Part shown: positions 1 to 13,831 of the stretch, one piece after another | How positions within the stretch are numbered: position 1 is the first letter of the stretch | How the letters are laid out: each line of letters starts with the position of its first letter | Assembly: GCA_964510165.1 (NCBI GenBank) | Contig: CAZEBC010000059.1 | Span: forward strand, 1-13,941 | Direction of reading: 5' to 3' | Origin: an uncultured bacterium | Lineage (GTDB): Bacteria; Abyssobacteria; SURF-5 | DNA length: 13,941 nucleotides | Notes under the pieces: model-generated | Database searches by the model: none | Seen by the model: the letters and a program-made list of their open reading frames with translations, nothing else | Told to the model about the DNA's origin: nothing | Translations under genes and position numbers: made by a program

Positions 1-2534
1 GCGTGAAGTATCCGATGAAGCGAGTTGGCGAACGCGGCTCAGGCAAATGGAAGAGAATCTCATGGGATGAGGCCATAGACGAAGTCTGCAACCACCTGCT
101 TGACGCCATGGAGACCGAGGGCCCCGAGTCAATCATTTACGAGCCGGGGCCAGGCAACGGCGGTTGGATACATCTGATAAGCATTTTCCGTCTGTTCAGC
201 GGACTGGGCGCGACGGAACTGGACCTCAACTCCACTATTGGCGACTTCAACAAGGGGGTGTACGAGACATTCGGCAAGTTCCAGTTCTGCGATTCGGTCG
301 ACGGCTGGTTCTTCGGCAAGCTCATCCTCATCTGGCACATGAACCCGGTGTATACCCGAATCCCGTCGTACCACTTCATCTCCGAGGCCCGGTACAACGG
401 GTGCGAGGTCGTCACGATAGCACCCGACTACTCGCCGTCCGCCGTTCACGCCGATCAGTGGCTGCCCATCGAGCCGGGCACCGACGCGGCTCTTGGCCTT
501 GCCATGGCGCAAGTACTCGTATCCGAAGGCACGTATGACAACGCATTCATGAAGGAGCAAACCGACCTACCGCTTCTGGTCAGGAGCGACACGAAGAAAT
601 TCCTGCGCGAGCCCGACCTCACCGGCAGTGGTCGTGAGGACCAAATGTACTTCTGGGACTCCGCTGCCAACGCTCCGGTCAAGGCGCCTCGCGGCACACT
701 CGTGCTCCCGTGCGACCCCGCCCTGGAGGGCAAATTCACGGTGACGTTGAAGGACGGACGTTCCGTGGAGGTACGGCCCGTCTTCGACCTCCTCAAGGAA
801 CTGTTGAACAAGGACTATACGCCGGAGCAGGCCTCCAAGATGTGCAGCGTACATCCGGACGCCATTCGGGACCTTGCCCACAAGGCATGGAAGGCGCGCG
901 GACACGTGCAGATACTTGTCGGCTGGAACTCCTCAAAGTACTATCATGGTGACCTGATGGAGCGCGCCATGTGTCTGCTGCTCGCGCTCACGGGAAGCGT
1001 CGGAAACAAGGGAAGCGGAATTCGCGGATGGAGCGAGTCGCTGTTTGACGGGGCTACCGCCCTCATGATCAGGGAACAGCGCGGCATGGCCACCCTGCTC
1101 CAATACGGCGAATCCCGGCTCGACCGATTCATGCTGAAGTCGCAGGACCCCGAAATCACTGACGAGATCATGCAGCGAGAGATGGAGCGGGCCGCCGACA
1201 GGGAGCGCCTCGGGATGGTGCCGCCCGTGTTCCTCTACTACTTCCACACCAACTATCGCAACACGTGGAACAACAGGGCGTGGAGCTGCCCCACCATGAA
1301 ACGCACCTTCGACGAGTACATGAAGGAGGCGCTCGATAAGGGGTGGTGGGACGGCCTCGTTAGGCCGGCGCCTGACCAGAAGCCTCTCGTCTATTGCTTC
1401 CTGGGCACAAGTCCGGCCAGAAAGAACCGGGGCTGGTTGAAAAACATATACCCGACCCTGTGGAAACAGTACAAATTCATCTTCACGTTCGAGACCCGCT
1501 GGAGCACGACCGCGCTCCTGGCCGACATGGTCCTGCCGGGCGCGGGTTTCTATGAAAAAACCGATACCCGGTTCCCCACCCCGCACGTGCCCTGGTTGAC
1601 ATTGACGGAAAGAGCGGTTACTCCCCTCGGTGAGGCCAAGGAAGAGTGGGAGATCGGCCGGCTGATCGCCGTGAAGGTGCAGGAACTCGCGCAAAAGAGG
1701 GGCAGGACAAAATTCAAGACCCGCTACGGCACCGAGCTGGACATGAGCAAGTTGGTCCAGCGGCAGGTGCTCGGTCGCGCGAGCGGCGACGAGACCCTTG
1801 ATGACGCCCTTAAACTCAGCGCCGTGCTCGGCACCCTGCCGCAGGAAACTACACTGGAAACCCTGCGCCGCGACGGCATCGTCCGCTTCACCAAAGTATC
1901 CAACCTCGACGTGATAGCCAAGCATCTCATGACCGACATCAAGCCGGATGAGCCAATCGTGCCGCTTACCTGGCACACCGGTCCGAAGAAGATCCCGTAT
2001 CCGACGTATAACCGCAGAATCACCTTCTACATAGACCACGACTGGTTCATCGAGGCCGGCGAACAATTGCCCGTCCACAAGGACAACCCGAAGATGGGCG
2101 GCAACTATCCGCTCCGAATGACGAGCGGACACCAACGCTGGAGCATCCATTCGATCTGGATCACCGACGATGTCCTTGCGCGCACTCATCAAGGCCGTCC
2201 GTTCATGTTCATGAACCCGGAGGACGCCAAGAAGCGCGGCATCGAGGACGGCGACCTCGTTCGCGTGCATAACGATTTCGATGATTTCAAGGTGCACGTC
2301 AAACTCACGGCGGCTGCGCGCTCTGAGGAAGGGCCGAGGCCCGGCCAGGTGATTATCTATCATGCGTGGGAACCGTACCAGTTCCCGGGCTGGAAGAGCT
2401 ATGACGCGGCGATACCGGGTCTGATAAAATGGCTTGACCTCGCGGCGGGCTACGGCCATCTGAACTATTACCGATGGAACTGGTGCACCCAGCCGATAGA
2501 CCGCGCGGTTTCGGTCGAGGTCGAGAAGGCATAG
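1..2534 (+). CDS. Molybdopterin oxidoreductase catalytic alpha subunit, DMSO reductase family type II, ethylbenzene dehydrogenase (EbdA)/steroid C25 dehydrogenase-like; 5' end lies outside the window
   Basis: The ORF opens within the conserved VKYPMKRVGERGSGKWKRISWDEA motif, so the GTG at 3 is not the true start and the expected Tat peptide and FS0 motif would lie upstream. Putative Mo-ligand Asp in DLNSTIGD (codon 243-245). Other motifs: NPVYTRIPSYHFISEARYNG, IAPDYSPSAVHAD, EQTDLPLLVR, SSKYYHGDLMER, ADMVLPGAGFYEK, FYIDHDWFIEAGE, HQRWSIHS, MNPEDAKKRGIEDGD. The segments VPPVFLYYFH..WNNRAW..KGWW..RPAPD match my recollection of EbdA-type rather than NarG-type proteins. Stop TAG 2532-2534. Confidence 0.92.
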   Translation, partial: VKYPMKRVGERGSGKWKRISWDEAIDEVCNHLLDAMETEGPESIIYEPGPGNGGWIHLISIFRLFSGLGATELDLNSTIGDFNKGVYETFGKFQFCDSVDGWFFGKLILIWHMNPVYTRIPSYHFISEARYNGCEVVTIAPDYSPSAVHADQWLPIEPGTDAALGLAMAQVLVSEGTYDNAFMKEQTDLPLLVRSDTKKFLREPDLTGSGREDQMYFWDSAANAPVKAPRGTLVLPCDPALEGKFTVTLKDGRSVEVRPVFDLLKELLNKDYTPEQASKMCSVHPDAIRDLAHKAWKARGHVQILVGWNSSKYYHGDLMERAMCLLLALTGSVGNKGSGIRGWSESLFDGATALMIREQRGMATLLQYGESRLDRFMLKSQDPEITDEIMQREMERAADRERLGMVPPVFLYYFHTNYRNTWNNRAWSCPTMKRTFDEYMKEALDKGWWDGLVRPAPDQKPLVYCFLGTSPARKNRGWLKNIYPTLWKQYKFIFTFETRWSTTALLADMVLPGAGFYEKTDTRFPTPHVPWLTLTERAVTPLGEAKEEWEIGRLIAVKVQELAQKRGRTKFKTRYGTELDMSKLVQRQVLGRASGDETLDDALKLSAVLGTLPQETTLETLRRDGIVRFTKVSNLDVIAKHLMTDIKPDEPIVPLTWHTGPKKIPYPTYNRRITFYIDHDWFIEAGEQLPVHKDNPKMGGNYPLRMTSGHQRWSIHSIWITDDVLARTHQGRPFMFMNPEDAKKRGIEDGDLVRVHNDFDDFKVHVKLTAAARSEEGPRPGQVIIYHAWEPYQFPGWKSYDAAIPGLIKWLDLAAGYGHLNYYRWNWCTQPIDRAVSVEVEKA

Positions 2535-2564
2535 GATTTGGGACAACAAGGGGGTCAATCACTC

Positions 2565-3242
2565 ATGGCTGAGAACGCAACGTTAGTCGGACAGATCACG
2601 GCGGCGAAAGTCTCCGCCTCTCGGGAGGAATTGCTCAAGCTGGATTCTCCCGAATGGGCGAAGGCCAAAGAGTACGTCTTGGAGATGGCTGCAACTCCTC
2701 TGGCGAACCAGCCCTCTCCCTACATTAAGGCCACCCGCGATGAGAAGGATATCGGCAAGATACAGAAGGTGAGCCTGAAGGTAGTGCACAATGGCAAAGA
2801 GGTATTTTTCTGCATCAAATGGCAAACTCCGGAAAAGAACCTCGCTATCGGCGACCTCAACACCTTCCCCGACGGCGTCGCGCTCCTTTTCCCGATAAAG
2901 GACGACCCGGATTGCCCGATCAAGGAAATGGGGACGGAGCAGTCCCCCACGAACGCATGGTACTGGAGGGCCGATTTCGAGAACAAGCCCAAAAACCAGA
3001 TCTCACAGGGGCTCTCGACAAGCCTCTATACCGAAACCAGCTCTGTGGTGGCTAACTCCGAATGGAAAGACGGAACATGGACCGTCATTATGGGACGAAC
3101 TCTCGAGGCGCCCGAGGAATCGGCAAAGCTGGCTGCGGGAGCCAAGAAGCCCATCGGCGTGGCCGCGTGGGAAGGAGCCGCCGGCGAGCGAGGCGGTGTG
3201 AAGGCCTTCTCAAAGGAATGGCGGGACCTCGTTCTTGCCTAA
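2565..3242 (+). CDS. Heme b-binding gamma subunit of type II molybdoenzyme (EbdC-like, ethylbenzene dehydrogenase gamma/DOMON-like fold)
   Basis: Motifs VHNGKEVFFCIKW, FPDGVALLFP, PIKEMG (candidate Met ligand, 2928-2930), NAWYWRAD, WKDGTWTVIMGR, AAWEGAAGERGGVKAFS (candidate Lys ligand, 3201-3203). Met/Lys heme ligation is the EbdC hallmark. ATG 2565 is preferred over TTG 2538 because it follows the AAGGGGGT RBS at 2548-2555. No signal peptide or transmembrane segment. Confidence 0.88.
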   Translation: MAENATLVGQITAAKVSASREELLKLDSPEWAKAKEYVLEMAATPLANQPSPYIKATRDEKDIGKIQKVSLKVVHNGKEVFFCIKWQTPEKNLAIGDLNTFPDGVALLFPIKDDPDCPIKEMGTEQSPTNAWYWRADFENKPKNQISQGLSTSLYTETSSVVANSEWKDGTWTVIMGRTLEAPEESAKLAAGAKKPIGVAAWEGAAGERGGVKAFSKEWRDLVLA

Positions 3243-3284
3243 GTCAACTAATGGTCTGCAACCATTGCTATAGGAGACAATGAA

Positions 3285-4412
3285 ATGCCAGTCTTAGAAC
3301 CGACCCCCGAAGACAAGAAGAGAGAGGAAGAATTAGCCAAAGAGTTCCTCGCCATAAAAGATGAGCTGCGTCGGACCAAACGCCAGCTCGTCATGGTGAT
3401 GGACCTCAATAAATGCGTCGGCTGCCAGCTCTGCAGCATGGCCTGCAAGAACACCTGGACCAAGAAAGAGGGCCGGGAATACATGTGGTGGAACACCGTC
3501 AACACCATGCCCGGAAAAGGCACCCCCAAAGACTTCGAAAAAATGGGCGGCGGCTACAAGGTCCTGTTCGAGGGAAGAGTGCGCGAACCCATCCGCGGGC
3601 AGTTGCCGACCCGCAAGGAGTTCGGCGACCTCTGGAAATTCAATCATGAGGAGGTCATCAACACCAAGTGGGGCGACGTCACGCTGACCGCCAAAAACTC
3701 CGACGGCACCACCCCCGATTGGTCCATGAACTGGGACGAGGACCAAGGCGCCATTGGCGTAGCCTACCCAAACAGTTTCTTCTTCTATCTGCCCAGAATA
3801 TGCAACCACTGCACATACCCGCCCTGCGTTGACGCCTGCCCGCGCCATGCCATCTACAAACGTGAAGAGGACGGAATCGTCCTTATCGACCAGGACCGCT
3901 GCAAAGGCTACCGGTTCTGCCTCGAATCCTGCCCGTACAAGAAGATTTACTTCAACTTTGAGAAACTGACCAGCCAGAAGTGCATCTTCTGCTACCCGCG
4001 CATCGAGAAGGGCGTGGCCAACGCATGCGCAAGACAATGCACCGGGCGGGTGAGGTTCGTTGATTACATCGATAACGAAAACGGGCCCGTTCACAAGCTC
4101 GTAAAGAAATGGAAGGTGGCGCTGCCGCTGTTCCCACAGTTCGGCACCGAGCCTAACGTGTATTACGTTCCGCCGCTCGCGCCGCCGAGACTCGACGACG
4201 CAGGCAAGCTCGACAGAACCAAGCCCCGCATTCCGCTGGGGTTCATGGTCCATCTGTTCGGGCCTGAGGTCGAACAGGCGCTGAAACTGCTCGAACAGGA
4301 GATGCAGCGAACCCGGGACGGCGAAAAGTCCGAACTCATGGAAATCCTCATAGCCAAGCGCTGGGGCGAAATGTTCGGACCCTTCGACAAAGACCCGATT
4401 ACTGCTGTCTAG
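3285..4412 (+). CDS. Iron-sulfur beta subunit of type II molybdoenzyme (EbdB/NarH-like; 3x[4Fe-4S] + 1x[3Fe-4S])
   Basis: Four Cys groups: CVGCQLCSMAC, CNHCTYPPCVDACP, CKGYRFCLESCP (one Cys replaced, indicating 3Fe-4S) and CIFCYPRIEKGVANACARQC. Family motifs KRQLVMVMDLNKC, NWDEDQG, FFFYLPRICNHC, KWKVALPL, GTEPNVYYVPP. RBS AGGAG at 3272-3276. Confidence 0.95.
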   Translation: MPVLEPTPEDKKREEELAKEFLAIKDELRRTKRQLVMVMDLNKCVGCQLCSMACKNTWTKKEGREYMWWNTVNTMPGKGTPKDFEKMGGGYKVLFEGRVREPIRGQLPTRKEFGDLWKFNHEEVINTKWGDVTLTAKNSDGTTPDWSMNWDEDQGAIGVAYPNSFFFYLPRICNHCTYPPCVDACPRHAIYKREEDGIVLIDQDRCKGYRFCLESCPYKKIYFNFEKLTSQKCIFCYPRIEKGVANACARQCTGRVRFVDYIDNENGPVHKLVKKWKVALPLFPQFGTEPNVYYVPPLAPPRLDDAGKLDRTKPRIPLGFMVHLFGPEVEQALKLLEQEMQRTRDGEKSELMEILIAKRWGEMFGPFDKDPITAV

Positions 4413-4431
4413 ACAAGGCCAAGACGAAACC

Positions 4432-4461
4432 TGTGGGGGCGGTGCGCGAACCGCCCCTGCA
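4432..4461. repeat. REP-like palindrome (degenerate GTAG-type) between the beta and delta genes
   Basis: TGTGGGGGCGGT-GCGCGA-ACCGCCCCTGCA forms a 12-bp stem (10 Watson-Crick, 2 G-U) with no U-tract; resembles GTAGGGGCGGTTCGCGAACCGCCCCTAC-type REPs. Confidence 0.65.
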
Positions 4462-4480
4462 ATAACATGTAAAGGCAAAA

Positions 4481-5191
4481 ATGAAACCGATTGCCGAGCT
4501 TGAAAATATCGAAGGCCCCGAGCAACATGAGCGGGCGCGACGAAGCCAGATGTACCGGTTCCTGGCTGAATCGTTTCGGTACCCCGATAAGGAATTCCTG
4601 AACATGGCCAGGGACAGCGGCTTCTTGGAGTCCGCCCTCGCCATCCTCCATGACATCCCGTATGAAGTCGCCGTGGAAGAAGGGGCGCTCTCGGGACGCC
4701 TGCTCGAAGGCGTTTCGCAGGATGATTTCGAGGCCGAATTCGTGCGCGTTTTCGAGGCGGGCCCCAAGGGTCCGCTCTGTCCCTTATACGAAGGTCATTA
4801 CGCCGGCAATCGGATGGGCAACATGGAGGAGTTGGTCCGGTTCTATAATCACTTTGGGCTTAGCGTGGCGGAAGCGCCGGAACGAGAATTGCCCGACCAC
4901 ATAACGACCGAGCTCGAGTTCCTGCATTACCTTGCGTTCAAGGAGGTGCTCGCCCTCCAGCGCGGAGAGGACCCTGCGCCGTATTGTTCCGCCGAAATCG
5001 ATTTTCTCAAGCGGCATCCGGCCAAATGGCTGCCCCAACTCCACAAGAAGACTGAAGACGTCTTCCGGGCAAAAATACCCAATCTCTGCGAGCCGGCCCT
5101 CTCGTTCTACTGCTCCCTGCTCGGGTTGTCGGCAAATTTCTGCGAGGCTGACCTCGCGCATCTTCAGCGCCTGTATCCCGACAGGAAATGA
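4481..5191 (+). CDS. Private molybdoenzyme maturation chaperone, TorD/DmsD/NarJ family (EbdD-like delta subunit)
   Basis: RSQMYRFLAESFRYP, CPLYEGHY, FYNHFGL, ELPDHITTELEFLHYL (E-x-x-D-H signature) and FLKRHPAKWLP; located directly after the beta subunit gene. Confidence 0.9.
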   Translation: MKPIAELENIEGPEQHERARRSQMYRFLAESFRYPDKEFLNMARDSGFLESALAILHDIPYEVAVEEGALSGRLLEGVSQDDFEAEFVRVFEAGPKGPLCPLYEGHYAGNRMGNMEELVRFYNHFGLSVAEAPERELPDHITTELEFLHYLAFKEVLALQRGEDPAPYCSAEIDFLKRHPAKWLPQLHKKTEDVFRAKIPNLCEPALSFYCSLLGLSANFCEADLAHLQRLYPDRK

Positions 5192-5207
5192 TTCGGCGAA
5201 CGGCGCC

Positions 5208-5233
5208 GTAAGGGCGGCCCTGCGGGGCCGCCC
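5208..5233. repeat. REP-like palindrome between the chaperone and cytochrome b genes
   Basis: GTAA then GGGCGGCCC-TGCG-GGGCCGCCC: perfect 9-bp stem, 5212-5220 pairing with 5225-5233. Confidence 0.6.
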
Positions 5234-5254
5234 GATCATCGAATATGTGCAGAC

Positions 5255-6016
5255 ATGAAGAAGCTCACAATAAAAGTTACTGAGACCCAGCTATGGCGTT
5301 CCATCTTTCGCCACAAGTTCTCCGACACGCCCCGCAATAGGGCGCTGACGGTCGTATCCAATTTCTTCCTGCATTTGCATCCTCCCAAGGTGCACGTCGT
5401 GGGCCTCAAGATCAGACACACGTTTTGCCTCGGCGGACTCACCTTTTTTATGTTCCTGGTCGAGACCGTCACCGGCGTCTTGCTCATGTTTTATTACAGG
5501 CCAACGGTCGAATACGCCTATCTCGACATGCGCCTGCTCGAGCATGTCGTAAAATTCGGGCCCATCATGCGTAACCTCCACCGCTGGGCGGCGCACGCCA
5601 TGGTGATACTGGTCATGATGCACATGCTCCGCGTATTCCTCACCGGCTCGTACAAGCCCCCCCGCGAGTTCAATTGGGTGGTCGGCGTCATGCTCCTGGT
5701 GCTGACGCTCCTCTTGAGCTTCACCGGATACCTCCTGCCCTGGGACCAGCTTTCCTTCTGGGCCATAACGGTCGGCACGCGCATGGGCGGCGCCACACCG
5801 TTCCTCGGGGCGGAAGGCCCGTTCCATTCCCTTCTGGGAATCGGCCCCGACAACGACATCCGCTTCCTCCTTCTTGGAGACACGGCCGTCGGGGAAAACG
5901 CCCTGCTCAGGTTTTACGTGCTCCATTGTATTCTGCTTCCCTTGGCGGCAACCGTACTGGTATTCGTTCATTTTTGGCGGGTGAGAAAAGATGGCGGTAT
6001 CTCGCATCCACTCTGA
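5255..6016 (+). CDS. petB: Cytochrome b6-type (short, N-terminal cytochrome b) subunit of a Rieske/cytb-family complex
   Basis: [12 protein letters not shown]; heme b His pairs in [23 protein letters not shown] and [54 protein letters not shown] carries the b6-type heme ci Cys (5426-5428). The C-terminus [10 protein letters not shown]-stop resembles the b6 ending RKQGISGPL. Confidence 0.92.
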
Positions 6017-6740
6017 GCTTAAGGAACAGCCATCCCAGGCTCGCGAGAAAAGGCTCGATGCGGACTACGAATTTGTGATGCCGCATCTCGTCATGATGGA
6101 GCTTATCGCAGCCATTCTGGCCAGCATTGTCCTTCTCGTGTGGTCAATGACGGTCAACGCGCCGCTCCTCAGCATCGCCGATCCCAACAAGACGGAAAAC
6201 CCCGCGAAGGCCCCCTGGTATTTCGTCGGTTTGCAGGAACTGCTCGTGTACTTCGACCCGTGGATCGCGGGTGTCGTGATACCGCTCCTCATAATCGCAG
6301 GCCTTATGCTGATCCCCTACCTCGACGTGAATAAGGCAGGAGTCGGAACCTATACATTCAAGAAACGAAAAGCGGAGGTCTCAAACTATATCTTTGGGTT
6401 CGCCTTGTGGATTATTCTGATACTGGTCGGCCAATTCCTGCGAGGCCCCAACTGGCAGTTCTACTGGTTATGGGAAGACTGGTCCGTCGCGAAGAGCGCC
6501 GAGGAAACCCTCGTGAATTTCCCGCTGTGGGCGGGCATCACATTCCTCGCCCTCTATTTCGGTCTGGGACTGAGCCTGCCAGCCCTCATTTGGAAAGGAC
6601 TGCACAGAAAGATGGGCACGGCCAGGTATGTGATCGCCTTTACATTGGTTCTTCTTATGTATGGAGTCGTCATAAAGATTTTCTTGCGACTTGCATTCCA
6701 CATACGCTACATCCTGGCTACTCCTTGGTTCAATATTTGA
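5991..6740 (+). CDS. petD: Cytochrome b6 subunit IV-like protein (C-terminal half of cytochrome b), extended to about 5 transmembrane helices
   Basis: PHLVMMEL..., [35 protein letters not shown] (aligns with subunit IV ADP..TP..I.PEWYF) and LIPYLD. Five hydrophobic segments by eye. The ATG at 5991 overlaps the cytochrome b gene by 26 nt; the start could alternatively be near 6075-6078. Confidence 0.8.
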
Positions 6741-6762
6741 CTGAAGTGCGCCGGAGTCATTT

Positions 6763-8973
6763 ATGAGCACAATCAGGGCAAAAACGATTCATCGCACGCT
6801 CTTCGTCGCGGCGACGCTCCTCTTTGCCGCCCTCAGCTACGGCGCGTACCTCCAGGAGACCCGCAAGGAATGGGTCGATTTCCAAAAGGAATTCAAGAAT
6901 CTCTCCAAGCGGAGAATTCAGGCAAAACTCGATGAAGCCCTAAGGAACAGCGACCAATCGTCTCAAGAGAAGTGGATGAAACGATTGTTGGAGGTCGAAT
7001 CGTCCGCAGCCCAACTTCGCCAGATTTTCCTGCCCGATGCGAACGTGAGAGACCTCTGTACCACTTGCCATCTCGGCATCGAGGACCCTCTCTTCGCAGA
7101 TGCGCCCGAACCCTTCAAGACCCATCCCGGCCGTATGCTCGACCTGCACCGCGTGCAACGCTTTGGCTGCACGGTCTGTCACCACGGCCAGGGCGTCGGC
7201 GTCACTACCGAGGCGGCTCACGGCTATGTGGAAACATGGTACAGGCCGCTCCTCCCGAAGGAACACGTCGAGGCGACATGTATCGGGTGTCACGAAACCT
7301 CATACGGCCTCGAAGGCGCCGAACGGCTTGAGCAGGGCCGCCTCACCTTCGCCAAATACGGCTGCTATGGCTGCCATAGCTCCCGCGGGTTTGAGAACCT
7401 GCCCAAATTCGCGCCCACTTTTGAGGGCTTCGCATCCAAACTCGCCGACGAACGCTGGATGCTGAGCTGGCTCAAAACGCCGGAAAAAATGCGTTCAACT
7501 ACCATCATGCCCACATTCAAGCTATCCGATGAGGAAATCCGTGACCTCACCGCCTTCGTGCTCTCTCTGAAAACGGAAAAGGAATATCCCAAGGTCAACC
7601 TCTCGGCGGCCTCCGCCCAGGACGGCGAGCGCCTCTTTACCGAACTCGGCTGCCGCGCATGCCATTCCTCCAAGAAAGACGAAGCCCCGCTCGAACGGCG
7701 TGTGCCTCTCCTGATCGATGCGGGCACGAAGCTCAACCCAAACTGGATTTTCGAATACCTTCGGGACCCAAAACAATATAATCCCGACACGCCCATGCCC
7801 AAACTCGATATCACCGAGACCGACCGCCTCAACCTGACCGCATATCTGATGACTCTCACGGCGAACGCCGACATCGTTAAGTCGGAACAGCTTACCGCCA
7901 AGGGCGCCTCGGTCGAGAATGGCGAGAAAATCGCGCAGTTGCAGGGCTGCTATGGCTGCCACAGGGTCGAATCCCTCGAAAAGGGTCCGATGCCCGGCGT
8001 CGAAGTGGCCGAAGTCGCCAAAAAGGCGCTCGATGAACTGCCCTTTGGAAACTCCACCGTTCCGATGACCAAATGGGATTGGATACTGAACAAGATCAAG
8101 ACGCCGAAGGTCTACGAAACATCCGATATGCCCCTCAAGATGCCTGAATACAAGTTCGAAGGTGACGAACCGCAACTCCTCACCACATACTACCTGTACA
8201 ACGCCCCGCTCCATTTGCCCGGAAATTACATGGCCGAGGCTACCTGGCAGCAGCGGCGCGGTCAGGCAGGCGAGCATCTGGTGACTTACTACAATTGCCG
8301 CGGCTGCCACATGTTTGAGGAGAACGCCAAGCCCCGTATCGACCAGTTCATCGACCTCAAGACCTATGTGCCTCCCAGGCTCGTCGGCGAGGGCGAAAAG
8401 GTCCAGCCCCAATGGGCCTTCCAATACCTCAATGGGCCGGTCCCGATGCGCCCGTGGCTGAAAATGCGGATGCCGACATTCTCCTTCACTTATGAACAAT
8501 TGGAAGATGCGATCAACTACTTCTCCATAAAGGCCGCTTCTCCCGAAGACGCGCGCGTGCCCTACGTCATCCTCCCCAGGAAAGAAGATATTCCGCAAAT
8601 CGAATTCGACATGGGCGAGTATCGCCTCCTCGCCGACAAATGCATGCAGTGCCATCCGGTTTCCCTCGAGGCCGGTCTCCCGCAGGACGTCAAGCTCGAG
8701 GACCTCTCCATAAACCTCATGCTTTCCAAAACCAGGCTTCGCTTCGAGTGGATCAAGAATTTCCTGCGAAACCCCGACAAGTACGCCGGAGCGGGAACCA
8801 AGATGCCATATGTCTTCTATACCCCTGAAGGCGTTCCCAGGGTGTCGGATGCGGAAATGTGGATCGATTACGTCACGCAATATCTGATGGTCATGGAGAA
8901 AATTCCCGAGGCCCCGCCCGAGGAAGAAAAGAAACCGGAAGATGAAGTGGATTGGACTCAGATGACCTATTGA
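6763..8973 (+). CDS. Membrane-anchored octaheme cytochrome c
   Basis: N-terminal hydrophobic anchor TLFVAATLLFAALSYGAYL, then a charged helical stalk. Eight CxxCH motifs with first Cys codons at 7057, 7168, 7279, 7363, 7651, 7948, 8296 and 8641. RBS GGAG just upstream; acidic C-terminal tail. Confidence 0.92.
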   Translation: MSTIRAKTIHRTLFVAATLLFAALSYGAYLQETRKEWVDFQKEFKNLSKRRIQAKLDEALRNSDQSSQEKWMKRLLEVESSAAQLRQIFLPDANVRDLCTTCHLGIEDPLFADAPEPFKTHPGRMLDLHRVQRFGCTVCHHGQGVGVTTEAAHGYVETWYRPLLPKEHVEATCIGCHETSYGLEGAERLEQGRLTFAKYGCYGCHSSRGFENLPKFAPTFEGFASKLADERWMLSWLKTPEKMRSTTIMPTFKLSDEEIRDLTAFVLSLKTEKEYPKVNLSAASAQDGERLFTELGCRACHSSKKDEAPLERRVPLLIDAGTKLNPNWIFEYLRDPKQYNPDTPMPKLDITETDRLNLTAYLMTLTANADIVKSEQLTAKGASVENGEKIAQLQGCYGCHRVESLEKGPMPGVEVAEVAKKALDELPFGNSTVPMTKWDWILNKIKTPKVYETSDMPLKMPEYKFEGDEPQLLTTYYLYNAPLHLPGNYMAEATWQQRRGQAGEHLVTYYNCRGCHMFEENAKPRIDQFIDLKTYVPPRLVGEGEKVQPQWAFQYLNGPVPMRPWLKMRMPTFSFTYEQLEDAINYFSIKAASPEDARVPYVILPRKEDIPQIEFDMGEYRLLADKCMQCHPVSLEAGLPQDVKLEDLSINLMLSKTRLRFEWIKNFLRNPDKYAGAGTKMPYVFYTPEGVPRVSDAEMWIDYVTQYLMVMEKIPEAPPEEEKKPEDEVDWTQMTY

Positions 8974-8978
8974 CCACT

Positions 8979-9007
8979 GTCGGGAGCGGTTCGATAACCG
9001 CCCTTGC
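8979..9007. repeat. REP-like palindrome after the octaheme cytochrome gene
   Basis: GTCGGGA-GCGGTT-CGAT-AACCGC-CCTTGC; core stem 8986-8991/8996-9001; shares GCGGT..AACCGCCC..TGC with the copy at 4432. Confidence 0.5.
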
Positions 9008-9048
9008 CCTATCGCGTTGAAGTTTGGTTACAACAACGGGGGACACAC

Positions 9049-12000
9049 ATGAAAACGTCGCTCATCAAGCCTCTCTTGATCGCCATCCTTGGGAGTTTCA
9101 TGCTGCTTTGCGGCTCGCGCGACTCACACGCCGCCACAGTCGTTAAGCAGAACATCGCCAAGAATTCGGTCTGGACCGCAAAGAAAAGCCCGTATGTGAT
9201 CGCGGGCAAGATCGCCCTCGAAGAAGGCGTCAGCCTCAAGATCGAGCCGGGCGCCCGCATCGAGTTCGCGCCCGAAGCCACGCTCGTCATCCTGGGCAAG
9301 CTCACAGCTATCGGGACTGAAGAAAAACCCATTGTGTTCACCGGCCGCTCAAGAGAACCCTGGGGCAATCTCCACTTCACCGATTTCAGCGAGAGCGCGA
9401 CCTTCTCCGAAGATGGCCACTTCATTGACGGTTGCATTCTCAAACATTGCATCGTCGAAGGCGGACGGGGCATCTATATAAGGTTCGGCGCGCCGTATAT
9501 CACCCAGTGCCAGATTCGCGGCAATTTCTCCAGCGGCATTCGCGTCGAATTCGGCGGCCCCCGCATCGTCGGCAATCAGATTTTCAATAACTCCACCGAG
9601 TCCGAGCCTGCCTCCGGCAACGGCGGCGGCATCATCGTATATTCAGATAAGGACGTCGTCATCGCCAACAACATAATCCATAACAATATATCCGACGGCG
9701 GACGTGACGGCGGCGGCGCCATTTACGCCTACGCGTCAGACAAAGGCAGCATCGCCATCAGAAACAACATCATGTTCTCTAACACGAGTTCCCGACTGGG
9801 CGGCGGCGTCTACGCTTACAGAGCGGAAATCGAAAGAAACACCATCGTCGGCAATCGCGCCGCACATCGGGGCGGCGGCATTTTCGCCGTCGAGTCCAGG
9901 ATTCACGATAACGTCGTCCAGTCCAACACCGCCCAGCAGGGCGGCGGCATCTTCGCCGAAAACAGCGAGGTCATCTCCAACAGCATCATCGGCAACGCTT
10001 CCCTGCATCCCGAGGGCGGCGCGCTCTACTACTTCGGCTCGGGCGTCGTCCTCCACAATACGCTCGTTCGAAACACCGCAGAAGGCCGGGCTGCATGCGG
10101 CGGGATATACCTTTCCGGTAATCCGTCCGTCCACGACAACAACATATTCAACAATTCGGGCTATGCTCTCTATGTCGCCAATGTCGCCGACGCCCCGCAA
10201 GTCGACGCCACCGACAACTTCTGGGGTATCCACTCCCTCAATGACGTGCTCAGGCTGACGTTTGACTGGCTCGACAACGGCTCAAACGGGCTCGCCATAT
10301 GTGCGCCCTACCTTGAAACCATTTCACGAAAAGCGCCCGCGCCTCCCCCTTCAAATCTGTTGGCCTCCGCCGCCCCCGACGGCATAAGACTGTCGTGGGA
10401 AATGCCCCAGGGAATCAACTTCGACGGCCATAGGATTTATTACAGCCAGGATGACGGATATCCTTACGATTCAATAACCGAAGCGGGGCCCGACAACGCT
10501 TATCTCTTGAAAGACATCAACCCCGGAGCCACATACTATGTCGCCGTCTCCGGCTTCCGGTTCATTAACGGCAATGAGATCGAAACCGCCTTATCCGAAG
10601 AAATCAGCGTGACCTTCACAAAGGCGGATGCGACGCCCGCCACTCCCGCCAATCTCTCCCCTGCCGAGAACGCCACCGTCCCGCGTTCGACGACCCTCGT
10701 CCTCAGGCAGCCAGGCCCCGAAGTCGCCGCCGCGCGATGGCAGCTCTCAACCTCCGAGGATTTCTCCGCACTTGCAATCGACAGGATTGCCTCTGCGGGC
10801 GAACTGTCGAAGTTTGCGCTTTCCGAGGAAATCGTGCTCGGCGGACAAAAGTATTTCTGGCGGGCCGCCTACCGGACGAGCGGAGGCAGTTGGTCCGACT
10901 GGAGCGAGCCAACCTCCTTCACAACCATGCTCGACAGTCCCTCCCTCATTTCCGGCCCGGTGTCCGGTCCGGTTACCCTCACCACCCAGCAAAGCCCCTA
11001 CACCGTGACGGGCAACATGCTCGTCATGCCGGGAGCAACTCTCTCGATTCAACCCGGAGTTCAGCTCCGATTCTCCCCCGGCACCAACCTCATGGTCCAT
11101 GGCAAACTCGTCGCCAGAGGCGCTGATTCCAAGCCGATATTTTTTACTCGCGACAGGAACGAGAACTGGGGACAGCTCATCTTCGCCGACCAGAGCGAGG
11201 ACGCCACACTCGACGACAAGGGTGAGTATGCCGGCGGCAGCATCATTGAGCACTGCCTCGTGGAATACGGCAATGGCATCGTCATCGAGTCCTCCTCCCC
11301 CATTGTCCTGGAGTGTGACATCTCAAACAACCAGGGCAGCGGTATTGTCGTCAGACACGGCGGCCCCATCATCGTGAGAAACGACATCCATCACAACTCC
11401 GCCCCTACCAATGGCGGCGGTATCTACGCCTACACCAATGACATCATCCGCCTTAAATCCAACAAAATCCATGACAACCGCGCGGGCGGTGATGGCGGCG
11501 GCGTTTACGCGTACGGCTATATGAACACCTCCGCCATTCGCGTGGAGGGGAACGACATCACCTCGAACGAGGCCGCCGGCAACGGCGGCGGCGTTTACAT
11601 ATCCCGCTCGTCCGCGCTCGGCAACTGGATCGCCTCCAACAAAGCCGAAGGCAACGGCGGCGGCGTCTTCGCCACGTTCGGACTTGTCGAATCCAACGAC
11701 ATTCGCTCCAACCGCGCCGCCGAGGGCGGCGGCATCTTCGCCGAACGCAACAGCAGCCTCACGCGGAACTTCGTCGCCTCCAACGAAGCCCTATCCGGAT
11801 TCGGCGGTGGCGTCTACATCAATTTCTGGGGCGCCTCCATCGAAAACGAGTCGTTCGTCCAAAATACCGTCACCACAAATCGCGCGCCCACCGACCGCGA
11901 CAACGGCGGCGTCTTCGTCTCGGGCTTCCTGCTCTTTGAAGAGAACAATATCTACGACAACGTCGGCAGCCAGCTTTATAACGCTAACGAATCGAAATCC

Positions 12001-12144
12001 GAGCCGCTCGTGGCTTCCCAATGTTACTGGGGCATCGCCGACAAAGACGCCATCGCCAAACGCATAACCGACGGCAACGACAACCCCAAGCTCGGTCTCG
12101 TCAATTACGAGCCGTTCCTCTCCGAGCCTGTCAAATTCGACTGA
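9049..12144 (+). CDS. Secreted right-handed parallel beta-helix repeat protein (two duplicated PbH1/NosD-like modules) with two central fibronectin type III-like domains
   Basis: ATG 9049 after a GGGGGA RBS is preferred over TTG 9004. Sec-type signal MKTSLIKPLLIAILGSFMLLCGSRDSHA. Many N-x-A-x-x-GGG(I/V)(Y/F) repeats. FN3-like segments at about 10340-10620 (IRLSW..YYVAVS) and about 10635-10925 (YFWRAAY..WSDWSEPTSF). Confidence 0.85.
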   Translation: MKTSLIKPLLIAILGSFMLLCGSRDSHAATVVKQNIAKNSVWTAKKSPYVIAGKIALEEGVSLKIEPGARIEFAPEATLVILGKLTAIGTEEKPIVFTGRSREPWGNLHFTDFSESATFSEDGHFIDGCILKHCIVEGGRGIYIRFGAPYITQCQIRGNFSSGIRVEFGGPRIVGNQIFNNSTESEPASGNGGGIIVYSDKDVVIANNIIHNNISDGGRDGGGAIYAYASDKGSIAIRNNIMFSNTSSRLGGGVYAYRAEIERNTIVGNRAAHRGGGIFAVESRIHDNVVQSNTAQQGGGIFAENSEVISNSIIGNASLHPEGGALYYFGSGVVLHNTLVRNTAEGRAACGGIYLSGNPSVHDNNIFNNSGYALYVANVADAPQVDATDNFWGIHSLNDVLRLTFDWLDNGSNGLAICAPYLETISRKAPAPPPSNLLASAAPDGIRLSWEMPQGINFDGHRIYYSQDDGYPYDSITEAGPDNAYLLKDINPGATYYVAVSGFRFINGNEIETALSEEISVTFTKADATPATPANLSPAENATVPRSTTLVLRQPGPEVAAARWQLSTSEDFSALAIDRIASAGELSKFALSEEIVLGGQKYFWRAAYRTSGGSWSDWSEPTSFTTMLDSPSLISGPVSGPVTLTTQQSPYTVTGNMLVMPGATLSIQPGVQLRFSPGTNLMVHGKLVARGADSKPIFFTRDRNENWGQLIFADQSEDATLDDKGEYAGGSIIEHCLVEYGNGIVIESSSPIVLECDISNNQGSGIVVRHGGPIIVRNDIHHNSAPTNGGGIYAYTNDIIRLKSNKIHDNRAGGDGGGVYAYGYMNTSAIRVEGNDITSNEAAGNGGGVYISRSSALGNWIASNKAEGNGGGVFATFGLVESNDIRSNRAAEGGGIFAERNSSLTRNFVASNEALSGFGGGVYINFWGASIENESFVQNTVTTNRAPTDRDNGGVFVSGFLLFEENNIYDNVGSQLYNANESKSEPLVASQCYWGIADKDAIAKRITDGNDNPKLGLVNYEPFLSEPVKFD

Positions 12145-12181
12145 GAATTAAGTATGATTTCCCGCGGCCGGGCCTACCACA

Positions 12182-12215
12182 ACCCTCTCCCCCTGGGAGA
12201 GGGTGGGGTGTGGGG
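12182..12215. repeat. BoxC-like palindromic element
   Basis: ACCCTCTCCC-CCT-GGGAGAGGGT is a perfect 10-bp stem followed by the G-rich tail GGGGTGTGGGG. This is the architecture of CCCTCTCCC-N3-GGGAGAGGG..GGGGTGAGGG dispersed repeats. Confidence 0.65.
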
Positions 12216-12246
12216 CCTTGCTTACGACTCCGCCACGGTGCCCTTG

Positions 12247-12255
12247 TGGTATACT
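12247..12255 (+). promoter_or_regulatory. Possible extended -10 promoter element for the DUF2851 gene
   Basis: TG-G-TATACT (TGn plus 5/6 match to TATAAT) about 70 nt upstream of ATG 12323; no recognisable -35 at 17-bp spacing. Confidence 0.35.
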
Positions 12256-12270
12256 AACTACCGTCCCTTT

Positions 12271-12296
12271 GTAGTGGCGCACGCCGTGCGCCCTGC
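12271..12296. repeat. REP-like palindrome (GTAG-type) upstream of the DUF2851 gene
   Basis: GTAG-T-GGCGCAC-GCC-GTGCGCC-CTGC: GTAG foot plus a perfect 7-bp stem, 12276-12282 pairing with 12286-12292. Confidence 0.6.
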
Positions 12297-12322
12297 CACG
12301 GCCACCAGCGAGGAATCGAACC

Positions 12323-13831
12323 ATGGCATTCTCCGAAGATTACTTTAAACTCTTCGACAACGCCCCCGCATTCCATGACAAGGTCGCCCACAAATATCTC
12401 CTCGCCTCACAGAGCGCCCACATATCGGAACGCCTCCTCAGATGCATCTGGTTCGACAAACTTTATGATGGCCACAAACTGACCACCCATGACGGCGCCC
12501 CCATAATCGTTCACTCGCCCGGCACATGGAATCTCGAGAGCGGCCCCGACTTCCGAAACGCCGACCTCACCCTCGCCGGACGCCGCGTCAAGGGAGATGT
12601 CGAGCTCCATCTCGATCCCGCCGGTTGGCGCCTCCACGGCCATGCCCGGGACCCGCGCTATGACAACGTCATTCTTCACGTGGTCCTGAAAGCGCGACAA
12701 AAGGGCGAGCCGCCGCTGTCTCGCCACGGCGTCGAAATCTCCGAAGTCGCTTTCTGGAATTGCCTCACCGACGACCTCAAAGTGCTCAAGTGCGCGCTCA
12801 GGCCCGACGAGTACCCTTACAAAAGCCTCCGCAATTTCGGCCGATGTCAGGCATTGCTCGAGCAATTGCCCGCCGGTGCCGCCCCAAGACTCCTCAATAT
12901 CGCGGGCGACGCCCGCATCATCGCCAAGCAGCGACGATTCGGTTACGAAGCCGAAAAGCTCGATCTCGACCAGGTCGCCTACTGCGCCATTCTCGAAGGC
13001 TTGGGCTATAAGGCCTTCACAAAACAGTTCGCCCAACTCGCCCAAAAGCTCCCCTATCACCGGCTGCGCGAACGCGCGCTGTCGGTCCCACACGCGAACC
13101 GCCCGCTTCTCACGCAGGCGCTGCTTCTAGGCGCAGCCGGCCTGCTGGATTGCTCCGACAAGGAGACGCCCGCTGAATCGCGCGGATACCTCAATGTCCT
13201 CTGCCGCCTCTGGCGCGAGTTCGGGTTCGATGACCCGCCCGAGCCGACAATCACTTGGAAGGCCTCCGCCGTCCGCCCCGCAAACCTGCCCGAGCGCCGC
13301 ATTGCCGGCGTCAGCCACGTCCTCTCTCGCTCGTTCGACGACGGCCTCTTCAATTCTATTGTTGGATGCGTGACAAACGAAAACGTGAAGACCGCGCGAA
13401 ACAGTTCAATCGAGTTCCTCTCCAGCGCCACCGATGACTTCTGGTCTCATCACTACACCGCGTCCGGCAAGCGAACCGAGAAGCCTGTAAGCCTCCTCGG
13501 AAAAGGCAGGGCGCTCACCATCGCCGTAAACGCCTTCGTGCCGCTTGGATTGCTTCACGCCCGCACAGCCACCCGTCCCGACTACGAAAACCGCGTCCAC
13601 CAACTCTACTCCTCCCTCCCCTCCCCAATCGCCAACTCCATCTCTCGCCTCATGGAATACCGCATGTTCGGCCCAGAGCCCCGACAGCGCCTGGCCCGCA
13701 CCGCTCGAGCCCAGCAAGGCCTCCTCCAAATCTTCGCCGACTGGTGCAGCGACGACCCCTCCTGCGAGAATTGCGGCATCCTCTCCGGCCTCCAAACCGG
13801 CTTCATCAAAGACAAGATCACAGCCCCTTGA
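12323..13831 (+). CDS. DUF2851 family protein (uncharacterised)
   Basis: Characteristic N-terminal block ERLLRCIW..SPGTWNLESGPDF..GDVELH...WRLHGHARDPRYDNVILHVV; LGYK; RPANLPERRIAG; FWSHHYT; LLGKGRA..IAVNAFVP; C-terminal QQGLLQ...C-x5-C-x2-C. RBS GAGG at about 12310. Confidence 0.85.
   Translation: MAFSEDYFKLFDNAPAFHDKVAHKYLLASQSAHISERLLRCIWFDKLYDGHKLTTHDGAPIIVHSPGTWNLESGPDFRNADLTLAGRRVKGDVELHLDPAGWRLHGHARDPRYDNVILHVVLKARQKGEPPLSRHGVEISEVAFWNCLTDDLKVLKCALRPDEYPYKSLRNFGRCQALLEQLPAGAAPRLLNIAGDARIIAKQRRFGYEAEKLDLDQVAYCAILEGLGYKAFTKQFAQLAQKLPYHRLRERALSVPHANRPLLTQALLLGAAGLLDCSDKETPAESRGYLNVLCRLWREFGFDDPPEPTITWKASAVRPANLPERRIAGVSHVLSRSFDDGLFNSIVGCVTNENVKTARNSSIEFLSSATDDFWSHHYTASGKRTEKPVSLLGKGRALTIAVNAFVPLGLLHARTATRPDYENRVHQLYSSLPSPIANSISRLMEYRMFGPEPRQRLARTARAQQGLLQIFADWCSDDPSCENCGILSGLQTGFIKDKITAP

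Follow-up and report, generated by a model that had tools for sequence, protein, structure and literature searches.

To what does an ethylbenzene dehydrogenase (EBDH)-type molybdoenzyme pass its electrons when its genes stand in one run with those of a membrane cytochrome complex? The question is raised by the first 13,941 bases of contig C59 (hereafter the window), from a genome of 4.17 Mb in 325 contigs (G000) that represents a Candidatus Abyssubacteria-like lineage. Seven co-oriented genes at this locus encode, in order, the alpha, gamma, and beta subunits of the enzyme, a delta chaperone, a cytochrome b6, a subunit IV, and an octahaem cytochrome c. On balance, we think that the window carries most of one operon, orthologous to the Desulfosudis oleivorans Hxd3 ahy locus. 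We also give a slightly better than even chance to the reading that a periplasmic hydroxylase here feeds its electrons by a reversed Q cycle into menaquinone, where both the direction and the substrate are what we infer.

The listing of open reading frames (ORFs) gives nine long ORFs in the window, all on the plus strand, and its coordinates agree with a preliminary description of this DNA that had reported seven co-oriented genes with gaps of 68 nt or less and one overlap. The successive intergenic gaps are 3 nt (30 nt if gamma begins at ATG 2565), 42, 68, and 63 nt, a 26-nt overlap, and 22 nt. A consensus scan for terminator-like sites found none on the plus strand in any of these gaps. Fourteen such sites occur in the whole window and 14.9 are expected from shuffled sequences; the promoter scan counts are likewise not above those of shuffles. 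Because the terminator counts are at shuffle level, the scan is no evidence for or against a boundary at 5192-5254, in the gap that precedes the cytochrome b6 gene.

Position 1 of the window is the first base of C59, and this contig break truncates the operon. All upstream DNA is cut off there, and alpha is short of approximately 126 N-terminal residues. At the other end, the conserved cluster extends beyond 8973 and takes in the gene at 9049-12144. Relatives and contig C106 of the same genome give the full cluster as a MerR-type regulator, a Rieske protein with a twin-arginine translocation (Tat) signal, a 2[4Fe-4S] ferredoxin, and a Zn alcohol dehydrogenase, followed by alpha, gamma, beta, delta, cytochrome b6, subunit IV, octahaem c, and a beta-helix protein.

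The molybdoenzyme

The alpha gene (3-2534) is open at the contig start, and its product matches the Pfam families Molybdopterin and Molydop_binding as well as TIGR03479 (753 bits). Against structures in the Protein Data Bank (PDB), it scores 670 bits with EbdA (2ivf_A, residues 1-843), 397 with PcrA, 148 with NarG, and 109 with NxrA, which upholds the original assignment to the EBDH type. Among the reductase clades in which alpha might instead have fallen, the bit scores speak against those for nitrate and perchlorate; SerA, ClrA, and DdhA have no PDB entry and lie outside this direct comparison. By these matches, alpha is an AhyA-type catalytic subunit of the type II dimethyl sulfoxide (DMSO) reductase family, predicted to carry a bis(molybdopterin guanine dinucleotide) cofactor. 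D81 and K312 of alpha align with Asp223 and Lys450 of EbdA (by manual count on the 2ivf_A alignment), and the equivalents of both residues are invariant in 14 of 14 homologues. The residue equivalent to Asp223 is presumably the molybdenum ligand.

The gamma gene (2565-3242, with an alternative TTG start at 2538) encodes an EB_dh protein (PF09459, 105.5 bits) that matches EbdC (2ivf_C) with 112.6 bits and TIGR03477 with 128 bits, below the cut-off of 169.85 for that model. The start at 2565 is preferred to TTG 2538 because relatives have stop codons just 5' of the ATG. The haem b ligands Met122 and Lys213 (numbered from ATG 2565) align with positions 108 and 201 of 2ivf_C and are invariant in 15 of 15 sequences. 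The beta gene (3285-4412; Fer4_11) encodes a four-cluster iron-sulfur (Fe-S) electron-transfer subunit whose TIGR03478 score (486.2 bits) exceeds the cut-off (480.7). The cofactor-binding residues of an EBDH-type enzyme are present in alpha, beta, and gamma. The delta gene (4481-5191) encodes a NarJ/TorD-type assembly chaperone that matches PF02613 with 69.7 bits and scores 138 bits with TIGR03482, where the cut-off of 152.3 is not reached.

Full-length homologues of alpha (969 aa, 60-85% identity) bear an RRxFLK motif and an HX3CX3C motif. No signal peptide was found in any of the 15 gamma sequences, and the gamma orthologues all begin 10-25 residues ahead of the start of the solved EbdC chain. 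The twin-arginine signal on the alpha orthologues, taken with a gamma that lacks a signal, indicates that the enzyme is probably exported folded to the periplasm as a Tat-dependent heterotrimer in which gamma is carried along by alpha.

The EBDH of Aromatoleum aromaticum (EbdABC(D), PDB 2IVF) has the alpha, beta, and gamma subunits, the chaperone, the Asp molybdenum ligand, Lys450, and the Met/Lys haem b in common with the window. The two differ in the alpha-gamma-beta gene order of the window and in the scores of its products, all four of which fall far below the equivalog cut-offs of the Ebd models (EbdA 702 of 2000 bits, EbdB 455 of 740, EbdC 127 of 400, and EbdD 101 of 360). We know of no membrane complex that is co-encoded with EBDH.

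The cytochrome complex and its Rieske protein

The gene at 5255-6016 encodes the N-terminal half of a split cytochrome b (PF00033, Cytochrome_B, 142 bits). This protein is of the b6 type, as it scores 191 bits with the b6 model and 160.8 bits with b6 of the b6f complex versus 91 with cytochrome b of bc1. Its four haem-ligand histidines and the cysteine of the CxGG motif (FCLGG) align with b6. The overlapping gene at 5991-6740 encodes the C-terminal half, an extended subunit IV-type protein of 249 aa with a borderline match to PF00032 (Cytochrom_B_C; 20.3 bits against a cut-off of 20.7), and its overlapping start is supported because orthologues align from residue 1. The Qo motif of subunit IV is APWY (APWYF) where b6f has PEWY. 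Both APWY and CxGG occur in 20 of 20 ahy-linked loci. The CxGG motif reads FCLGG or FCMGG in these loci, versus the WCMGG usual in the APWY clade, and the assignment to this clade is by motifs rather than from a cytochrome b tree.

The octahaem cytochrome c (6763-8973, 736 aa) has eight CXXCH motifs and matches the Pfam families Cytochrom_C and Cytochrome_CBB3. It consists of an N-terminal hydrophobic helix that provides a membrane anchor, a compact four-haem part, and four class-I-like domains. The 15 orthologues compared all share the eight CXXCH motifs as well as five Met-Pro pairs, and the latter would fit several haems with His/Met ligation. A sequence search of the PDB gave no match for subunit IV or for octahaem c.

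Where the preliminary description had seen only a b6/subunit IV pair, every relative with enough upstream sequence to check, and also C106, has genes for a Rieske protein and a ferredoxin ahead of alpha. In one family genome (locus L017) and in the Hxd3-type locus L107, a Rieske protein with a Tat signal and a 2[4Fe-4S] ferredoxin of approximately 100 aa adjoin alpha on its upstream side. The same two genes precede alpha in five of five family loci with sufficient contig reach and in 11 of 11 Desulfobacterota loci (tblastn). The seeming lack of a Rieske gene arises because the contig breaks at window position 1. In G000 itself, the end of C106 carries the MerR regulator, the Rieske protein (11752-12321; PF00355, with both cluster-binding boxes and an RR signal), the ferredoxin, the Zn alcohol dehydrogenase, and 25 codons of an alpha gene before the contig ends. 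These 25 N-terminal residues include the twin-arginine motif RRQFLK. The alcohol dehydrogenase stands between ferredoxin and alpha in this lineage only and not in the Hxd3-type loci.

A few kilobases upstream of the regulator and Rieske genes on C106 (locus L111, 5031-7082) are genes for a MaoC-type hydratase and an acyl-CoA dehydrogenase of the beta-oxidation type. Continuation of C106 into an alpha paralogue on contig C294 is ruled out, since that paralogue has its own start codon and different upstream sequence.

Judged from these motifs, the cytochrome genes and the upstream Rieske gene together encode a complete split-cytochrome b complex that belongs to the APWY clade and bears a haem-ci motif. 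The position of the Rieske gene therefore favors a quinone route from the Rieske cluster to the Qo site in a reversed Q cycle, and not one from the octahaem protein through the b haems to quinone. The APWY clade was defined by Kao and Hunte (2014), who noted CxGG within it and stated that no member had been characterised (PMC4122944). The same source describes an APWY-type complex whose genes in Geobacter metallireducens cluster with those for p-cresol methylhydroxylase, and it reports a proposal that electrons there enter menaquinone by a reversed Q cycle.

Conservation across two phyla

An orthologue of the octahaem protein with 65-73% identity is present in nine of nine other family genomes, and all nine keep the gene order of the window as far as their contigs extend. 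Alpha is visible in seven of these loci, and the remaining two contigs stop before it. In eight, the gene after the octahaem one encodes the beta-helix protein, and in the ninth the contig stops inside the octahaem gene. A wider scan with one genome per species found 75 loci with a relative of alpha. Cytochrome b, subunit IV, and octahaem genes lie downstream in nine of these, two of which duplicate family loci, and the other seven are from Desulfobacterales or Thermodesulfobacteriota metagenome-assembled genomes (MAGs) with 62-66% alpha identity. No such cytochrome genes were found alongside the alpha genes of Chloroflexota and other loci (44-53% identity). The synteny of EbdA-like, b6/subunit IV, and multihaem c genes that the preliminary description had suggested looking for is thus found in the family, in Desulfobacterales, and in Thermodesulfobacteriota, and two phyla share the entire arrangement.

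Among the octahaem homologues, P0188 (45% identity) corresponds to the Hxd3 protein ABW66010.1 / WP_012173629.1. The AhyA protein of this strain is WP_012173623.1 (PMC7803848), and the octahaem accession is six after it, which fits a run of seven genes. Genome G047 encodes a protein 100% identical to the Hxd3 octahaem cytochrome within locus L107, where the order is Rieske, ferredoxin, alpha, gamma, beta, delta, cytochrome b, subunit IV, octahaem, and beta-helix. L107 thus has the same order from Rieske to beta-helix as the window lineage and an alpha of the same clade. Its proteins share 62% (alpha), 67% (beta), 56% (gamma), 77% (cytochrome b), 54% (subunit IV), and 45% (octahaem) identity with those of the window. 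The octahaem orthologue is present in 13 of 13 genomes of the G047 family, and its adjacency to the other genes was checked in three. Hxd3 belongs to a different phylum from the window lineage, which is placed as Candidatus Abyssubacteria-like by the names of its nearest proteins. Both Hxd3 and G000 have sulfate-reducer-type genomes.

AhyABC as described in print covers alpha, beta, and gamma only. The searchable literature gave us no account of cytochromes in the ahy locus, but key reviews and supplements were out of reach, so an earlier account may exist. The statement that no complex of this composition has been characterised agrees with what this literature holds. The suggestion that the composition has no precedent does not stand, since it is the same as that of the ahy locus in a cultured sulfate reducer, and the related idea for p-cresol oxidation in Geobacter is published (PMC4122944).

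Trees of alpha were built from 124 aligned segments plus an outgroup, the Nar/Nxr-like alpha of contig C109. L102-L106 and L110 (which repeat G000 contigs or G043), L061 and L069 (which repeat family loci), and segments shorter than 780 residues were dropped before counting, and a 61-row FastTree also leaves out rows below 47% identity (64 of 125). In this tree, one clade of 29 rows (support 98) contains 16 of 16 cytochrome-linked alphas, nine with too little downstream sequence for a call, and four orphan alphas. It divides into a Desulfobacterota half that includes L107 and an Abyssubacteria half that includes the window. None of the 31 rows in the sister group is cytochrome-linked, and for 21 of them the sequence extends 6 kb or more downstream. 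An IQ-TREE of 33 hand-picked rows recovers this clade (SH-aLRT 98): 12 of 12 cytochrome-linked alphas fall inside it, and 0 of 13 rows in the sister group are so linked. In published work, the ahyA cluster is separate from the ebdA, cmdA, and S25dA clusters (PMC7803848), and AhyA matches in Abyssubacteria have been reported by CANT-HYD (PMC8767102).

Orphan alpha paralogues without adjacent beta, gamma, or cytochrome genes also occur, with up to three per MAG. In G000 they are found on C294 (1-3002) and C69 (17549-17713), and elsewhere they make up loci L027-L034 and L036. Identity to the window alpha is 74-79% in Abyssubacteria and 67% in the one Desulfobacterota MAG that has such a gene (L036). 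These paralogues are more numerous in the window lineage. Steroid C25 dehydrogenases have multiple alpha subunits that share beta and gamma. This likeness suggests that the orphan alphas may serve several substrates.

Proposed electron path and direction

The ethylbenzene/1-phenylethanol couple and the haem b of EBDH lie above menaquinone in potential, so electrons from such a reaction must be lifted to reach it. Reversal of a Rieske/b complex at the cost of proton motive force (pmf) is established in iron and nitrite oxidizers. In the path that we favor, the enzyme would hydroxylate an alkyl chain with water, and two electrons would pass from the molybdenum through the Fe-S chain to the gamma haem b, and from there through octahaem c to the Rieske cluster. 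The complex could then run its Q cycle in reverse, spending pmf to reduce menaquinone at the Qo site. An organism with low-potential acceptors could in this way make use of electrons released at high potential, and oxidation of the alcohol product would fall to the co-encoded alcohol dehydrogenase. The ebd operon also includes a dehydrogenase, and by this parallel the alcohol dehydrogenase of the window lineage fits an alcohol as the product. The dedicated export of electrons to the quinone pool that had originally been proposed is kept as the best reading, and only its Rieske-less route is given up, on account of the Rieske gene upstream.

The presence of dsrA (567 bits) and aprA (914 bits), both above cut-offs, and of a single match to the haem-copper oxidase family suggests that G000 resembles Hxd3 in its dependence on low-potential acceptors. 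Contig C8 has two dsrA/dsrB-like places with identical scores (7853-10059 and 22141-24347), which represent either a true duplication or an assembly repeat.

Several points weigh against this reading. The direction and function of the locus are proposed from gene content and motifs, and type II enzymes in which haem b has this Met/Lys ligation act as bc-fed reductases elsewhere, so that gene content alone leaves the direction unfixed. A second type II enzyme stands beside a Rieske/b complex on C109, and such pairings in this lineage may also serve reductases. The continuation of C106 into the window, with approximately 100 codons unassembled between them, is predicted by synteny with relatives. 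The active site also differs from that of EBDH, because EbdA His192 aligns with Pro50 of alpha (window 150-152, by manual count), where the consensus of the AhyA-type clade is GPGNGG. His192 is important for catalysis by EBDH. The hydroxylation of n-alkanes, at C2, by the Hxd3 AhyABC is itself only a proposal that rests on Hxd3 proteomics, as cited in PMC3653055. Finally, our alpha trees were built without named EbdA, CmdA, S25dA, SerA, ClrA, or DdhA sequences, and placement relative to these relies on PDB and profile model scores and on PMC7803848.

The first alternative is that the locus works in the reductase direction, with the Rieske/b6 complex oxidizing menaquinol and octahaem c passing electrons to the gamma haem b so that the molybdoenzyme reduces a periplasmic acceptor. 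This is the proposed electron supply of selenate, chlorate, and haloarchaeal nitrate reductases. The Met/Lys haem b is common to reductases and oxidases of the family, gamma also matches NxrC, and C109 pairs a Nar/Nxr-like type II enzyme with a Rieske/b/nine-haem complex. The haloarchaeal Rieske/cytochrome b-Nar cluster has been interpreted in the same way (PMC3509893). However, alpha is far closer to EbdA than to PcrA or NarG and groups with the AhyA-type alpha of L107, an alcohol dehydrogenase gene lies within the operon in this lineage, and the APWY Qo motif is tied in print to reverse operation (PMC4122944). We consider the reductase direction unlikely, though not remote.

The C109 locus (L102, 835-13329) begins with genes for a GltD-like NAD(P)/FAD Fe-S protein, a Rieske protein, a fused b6-subunit IV protein (518 aa), and a nine-haem cytochrome c. 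These are followed by a Nar/Nxr-like alpha of 1190 aa, beta, gamma, and a chaperone, which together form a type II enzyme of the periplasmic type. Its layout recalls the NAD(P)-linked Rieske/b complexes of the anammox type.

The Rieske, b6, and octahaem proteins might instead form a general respiratory complex whose genes merely stand beside those of the molybdoenzyme. Related cytochrome b/subunit IV/multihaem modules do occur without a nearby molybdoenzyme (L024-L026), and a complex prediction for gamma and octahaem residues 75-736, run without controls, scored 0.00, below the mark, and gives no answer on contact between them. Mere adjacency is nevertheless unlikely, because the genes of the complex are split around those of the molybdoenzyme and this split order is kept in two phyla. 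In addition, G000 has other cytochrome b loci on C12 and C109, and the cytochrome linkage is limited to one alpha clade. The probability that no dedicated link exists is low.

A variant with a similarly slim chance assigns a role to the small cytoplasmic 2[4Fe-4S] ferredoxin, whose gene stands after the Rieske gene and before alpha in all the loci examined. The ferredoxin might be an n-side subunit whose low-potential electrons reach the Qo site by way of haem ci and the b haems. Menaquinone would then be reduced by confurcation and no pmf would be spent, with one high-potential electron arriving from the hydroxylase through octahaem c and the Rieske protein and one low-potential electron from the ferredoxin. 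If true, this ferredoxin-assisted quinone reductase would be a new operating mode for Rieske/b complexes.

A Rieske-less b6/subunit IV pair like the Cbc/Ext modules of Geobacter, in which octahaem c would pass electrons through the b haems to quinone directly, is very improbable: the window itself contains no Rieske gene and its proteins do match the ExtP (cytochrome b, 267.6 bits) and ExtQ (subunit IV, 54.7 bits) models, but both are short of the cut-offs (290 and 150), and the Rieske gene is found in the cluster wherever the upstream sequence can be seen.

Related electron-transfer systems

Three further known systems resemble the window locus in part. In Acidithiobacillus ferrooxidans, the bc1 complex has the Qo motif PPWY and an unsplit cytochrome b, and its electrons come from Fe(II) by way of soluble carriers and not from a co-encoded enzyme. 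This uphill bc1 shares with our proposal the pmf-driven reversal that brings high-potential electrons into the quinone pool (mentioned in PMC4122944). The p-cresol methylhydroxylase of G. metallireducens is, like the window enzyme, a periplasmic O2-independent hydroxylase with its own APWY-clade Rieske/b complex (PMC4122944), but it is a flavocytochrome whereas the window enzyme is a molybdoenzyme. The haloarchaeal Rieske/cytochrome b-NarGH system likewise encodes a Tat-exported type II enzyme along with a Rieske/b complex of its own and a haem carrier in the periplasm (PMC3509893). It differs in that electrons are proposed to flow from quinol to nitrate, cytochrome b is unsplit, and no c-type cytochrome is present; the window alpha, moreover, is not Nar-like.

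The beta-helix protein and downstream genes

The gene at 9049-12144 encodes a secreted protein of approximately 1030 aa with two right-handed beta-helix regions (Pfam Beta_helix, 103 bits) and an Fn3 domain (Pfam fn3), and its signal peptide is read from M16 of the TTG frame. It is the last gene of the cluster in both phyla, with 36-43% identity in Desulfobacterota loci and a 923-aa ORF in L107. An Atlas search with this protein returned only generic beta-helix/Fn3 clusters with scores of 0.84 or less. The beta-helix protein might bind or present a hydrophobic substrate.

The next gene in the window (12323-13831) encodes a DUF2851 protein. In two other Abyssubacteria-like MAGs (L033 and L068), a DUF2851 gene lies directly upstream of an orphan alpha paralogue. 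Past the window, locus L105 (C59 13745-19822) encodes a Porin_5 porin, a c7-type trihaem cytochrome, an Fe-S protein, and a molybdopterin-like protein of at least 1069 aa. This module looks like the ACIII/Qrc type.

Significance

We regard the locus as a conserved, uncharacterised variant of a known idea and, from its gene order and alpha clade, as the Abyssubacteria member of the ahy-type loci exemplified by Hxd3. One consequence concerns the use of ahyA as a marker. Matches to ahyA alone are an unsafe indication of alkane degradation, as the clade includes orphan alphas and an alkane is only a candidate substrate in Abyssubacteria.

Hydroxylation of unactivated C-H bonds by EBDH-type enzymes without O2 releases electrons at potentials above those of menaquinone and of the steps of sulfate reduction, and in the searchable literature we found no explanation of how a sulfate reducer such as Hxd3 could use an enzyme of this kind. 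A dedicated, conserved Rieske/b6/octahaem complex offers a concrete and testable answer, in which an APWY-type complex carries out reverse electron transport. Such a complex would also be the first natural partner with which the uncharacterised APWY clade could be studied, and because the locus occurs in cultured Hxd3 as well as in Abyssubacteria, the system is accessible at the bench.

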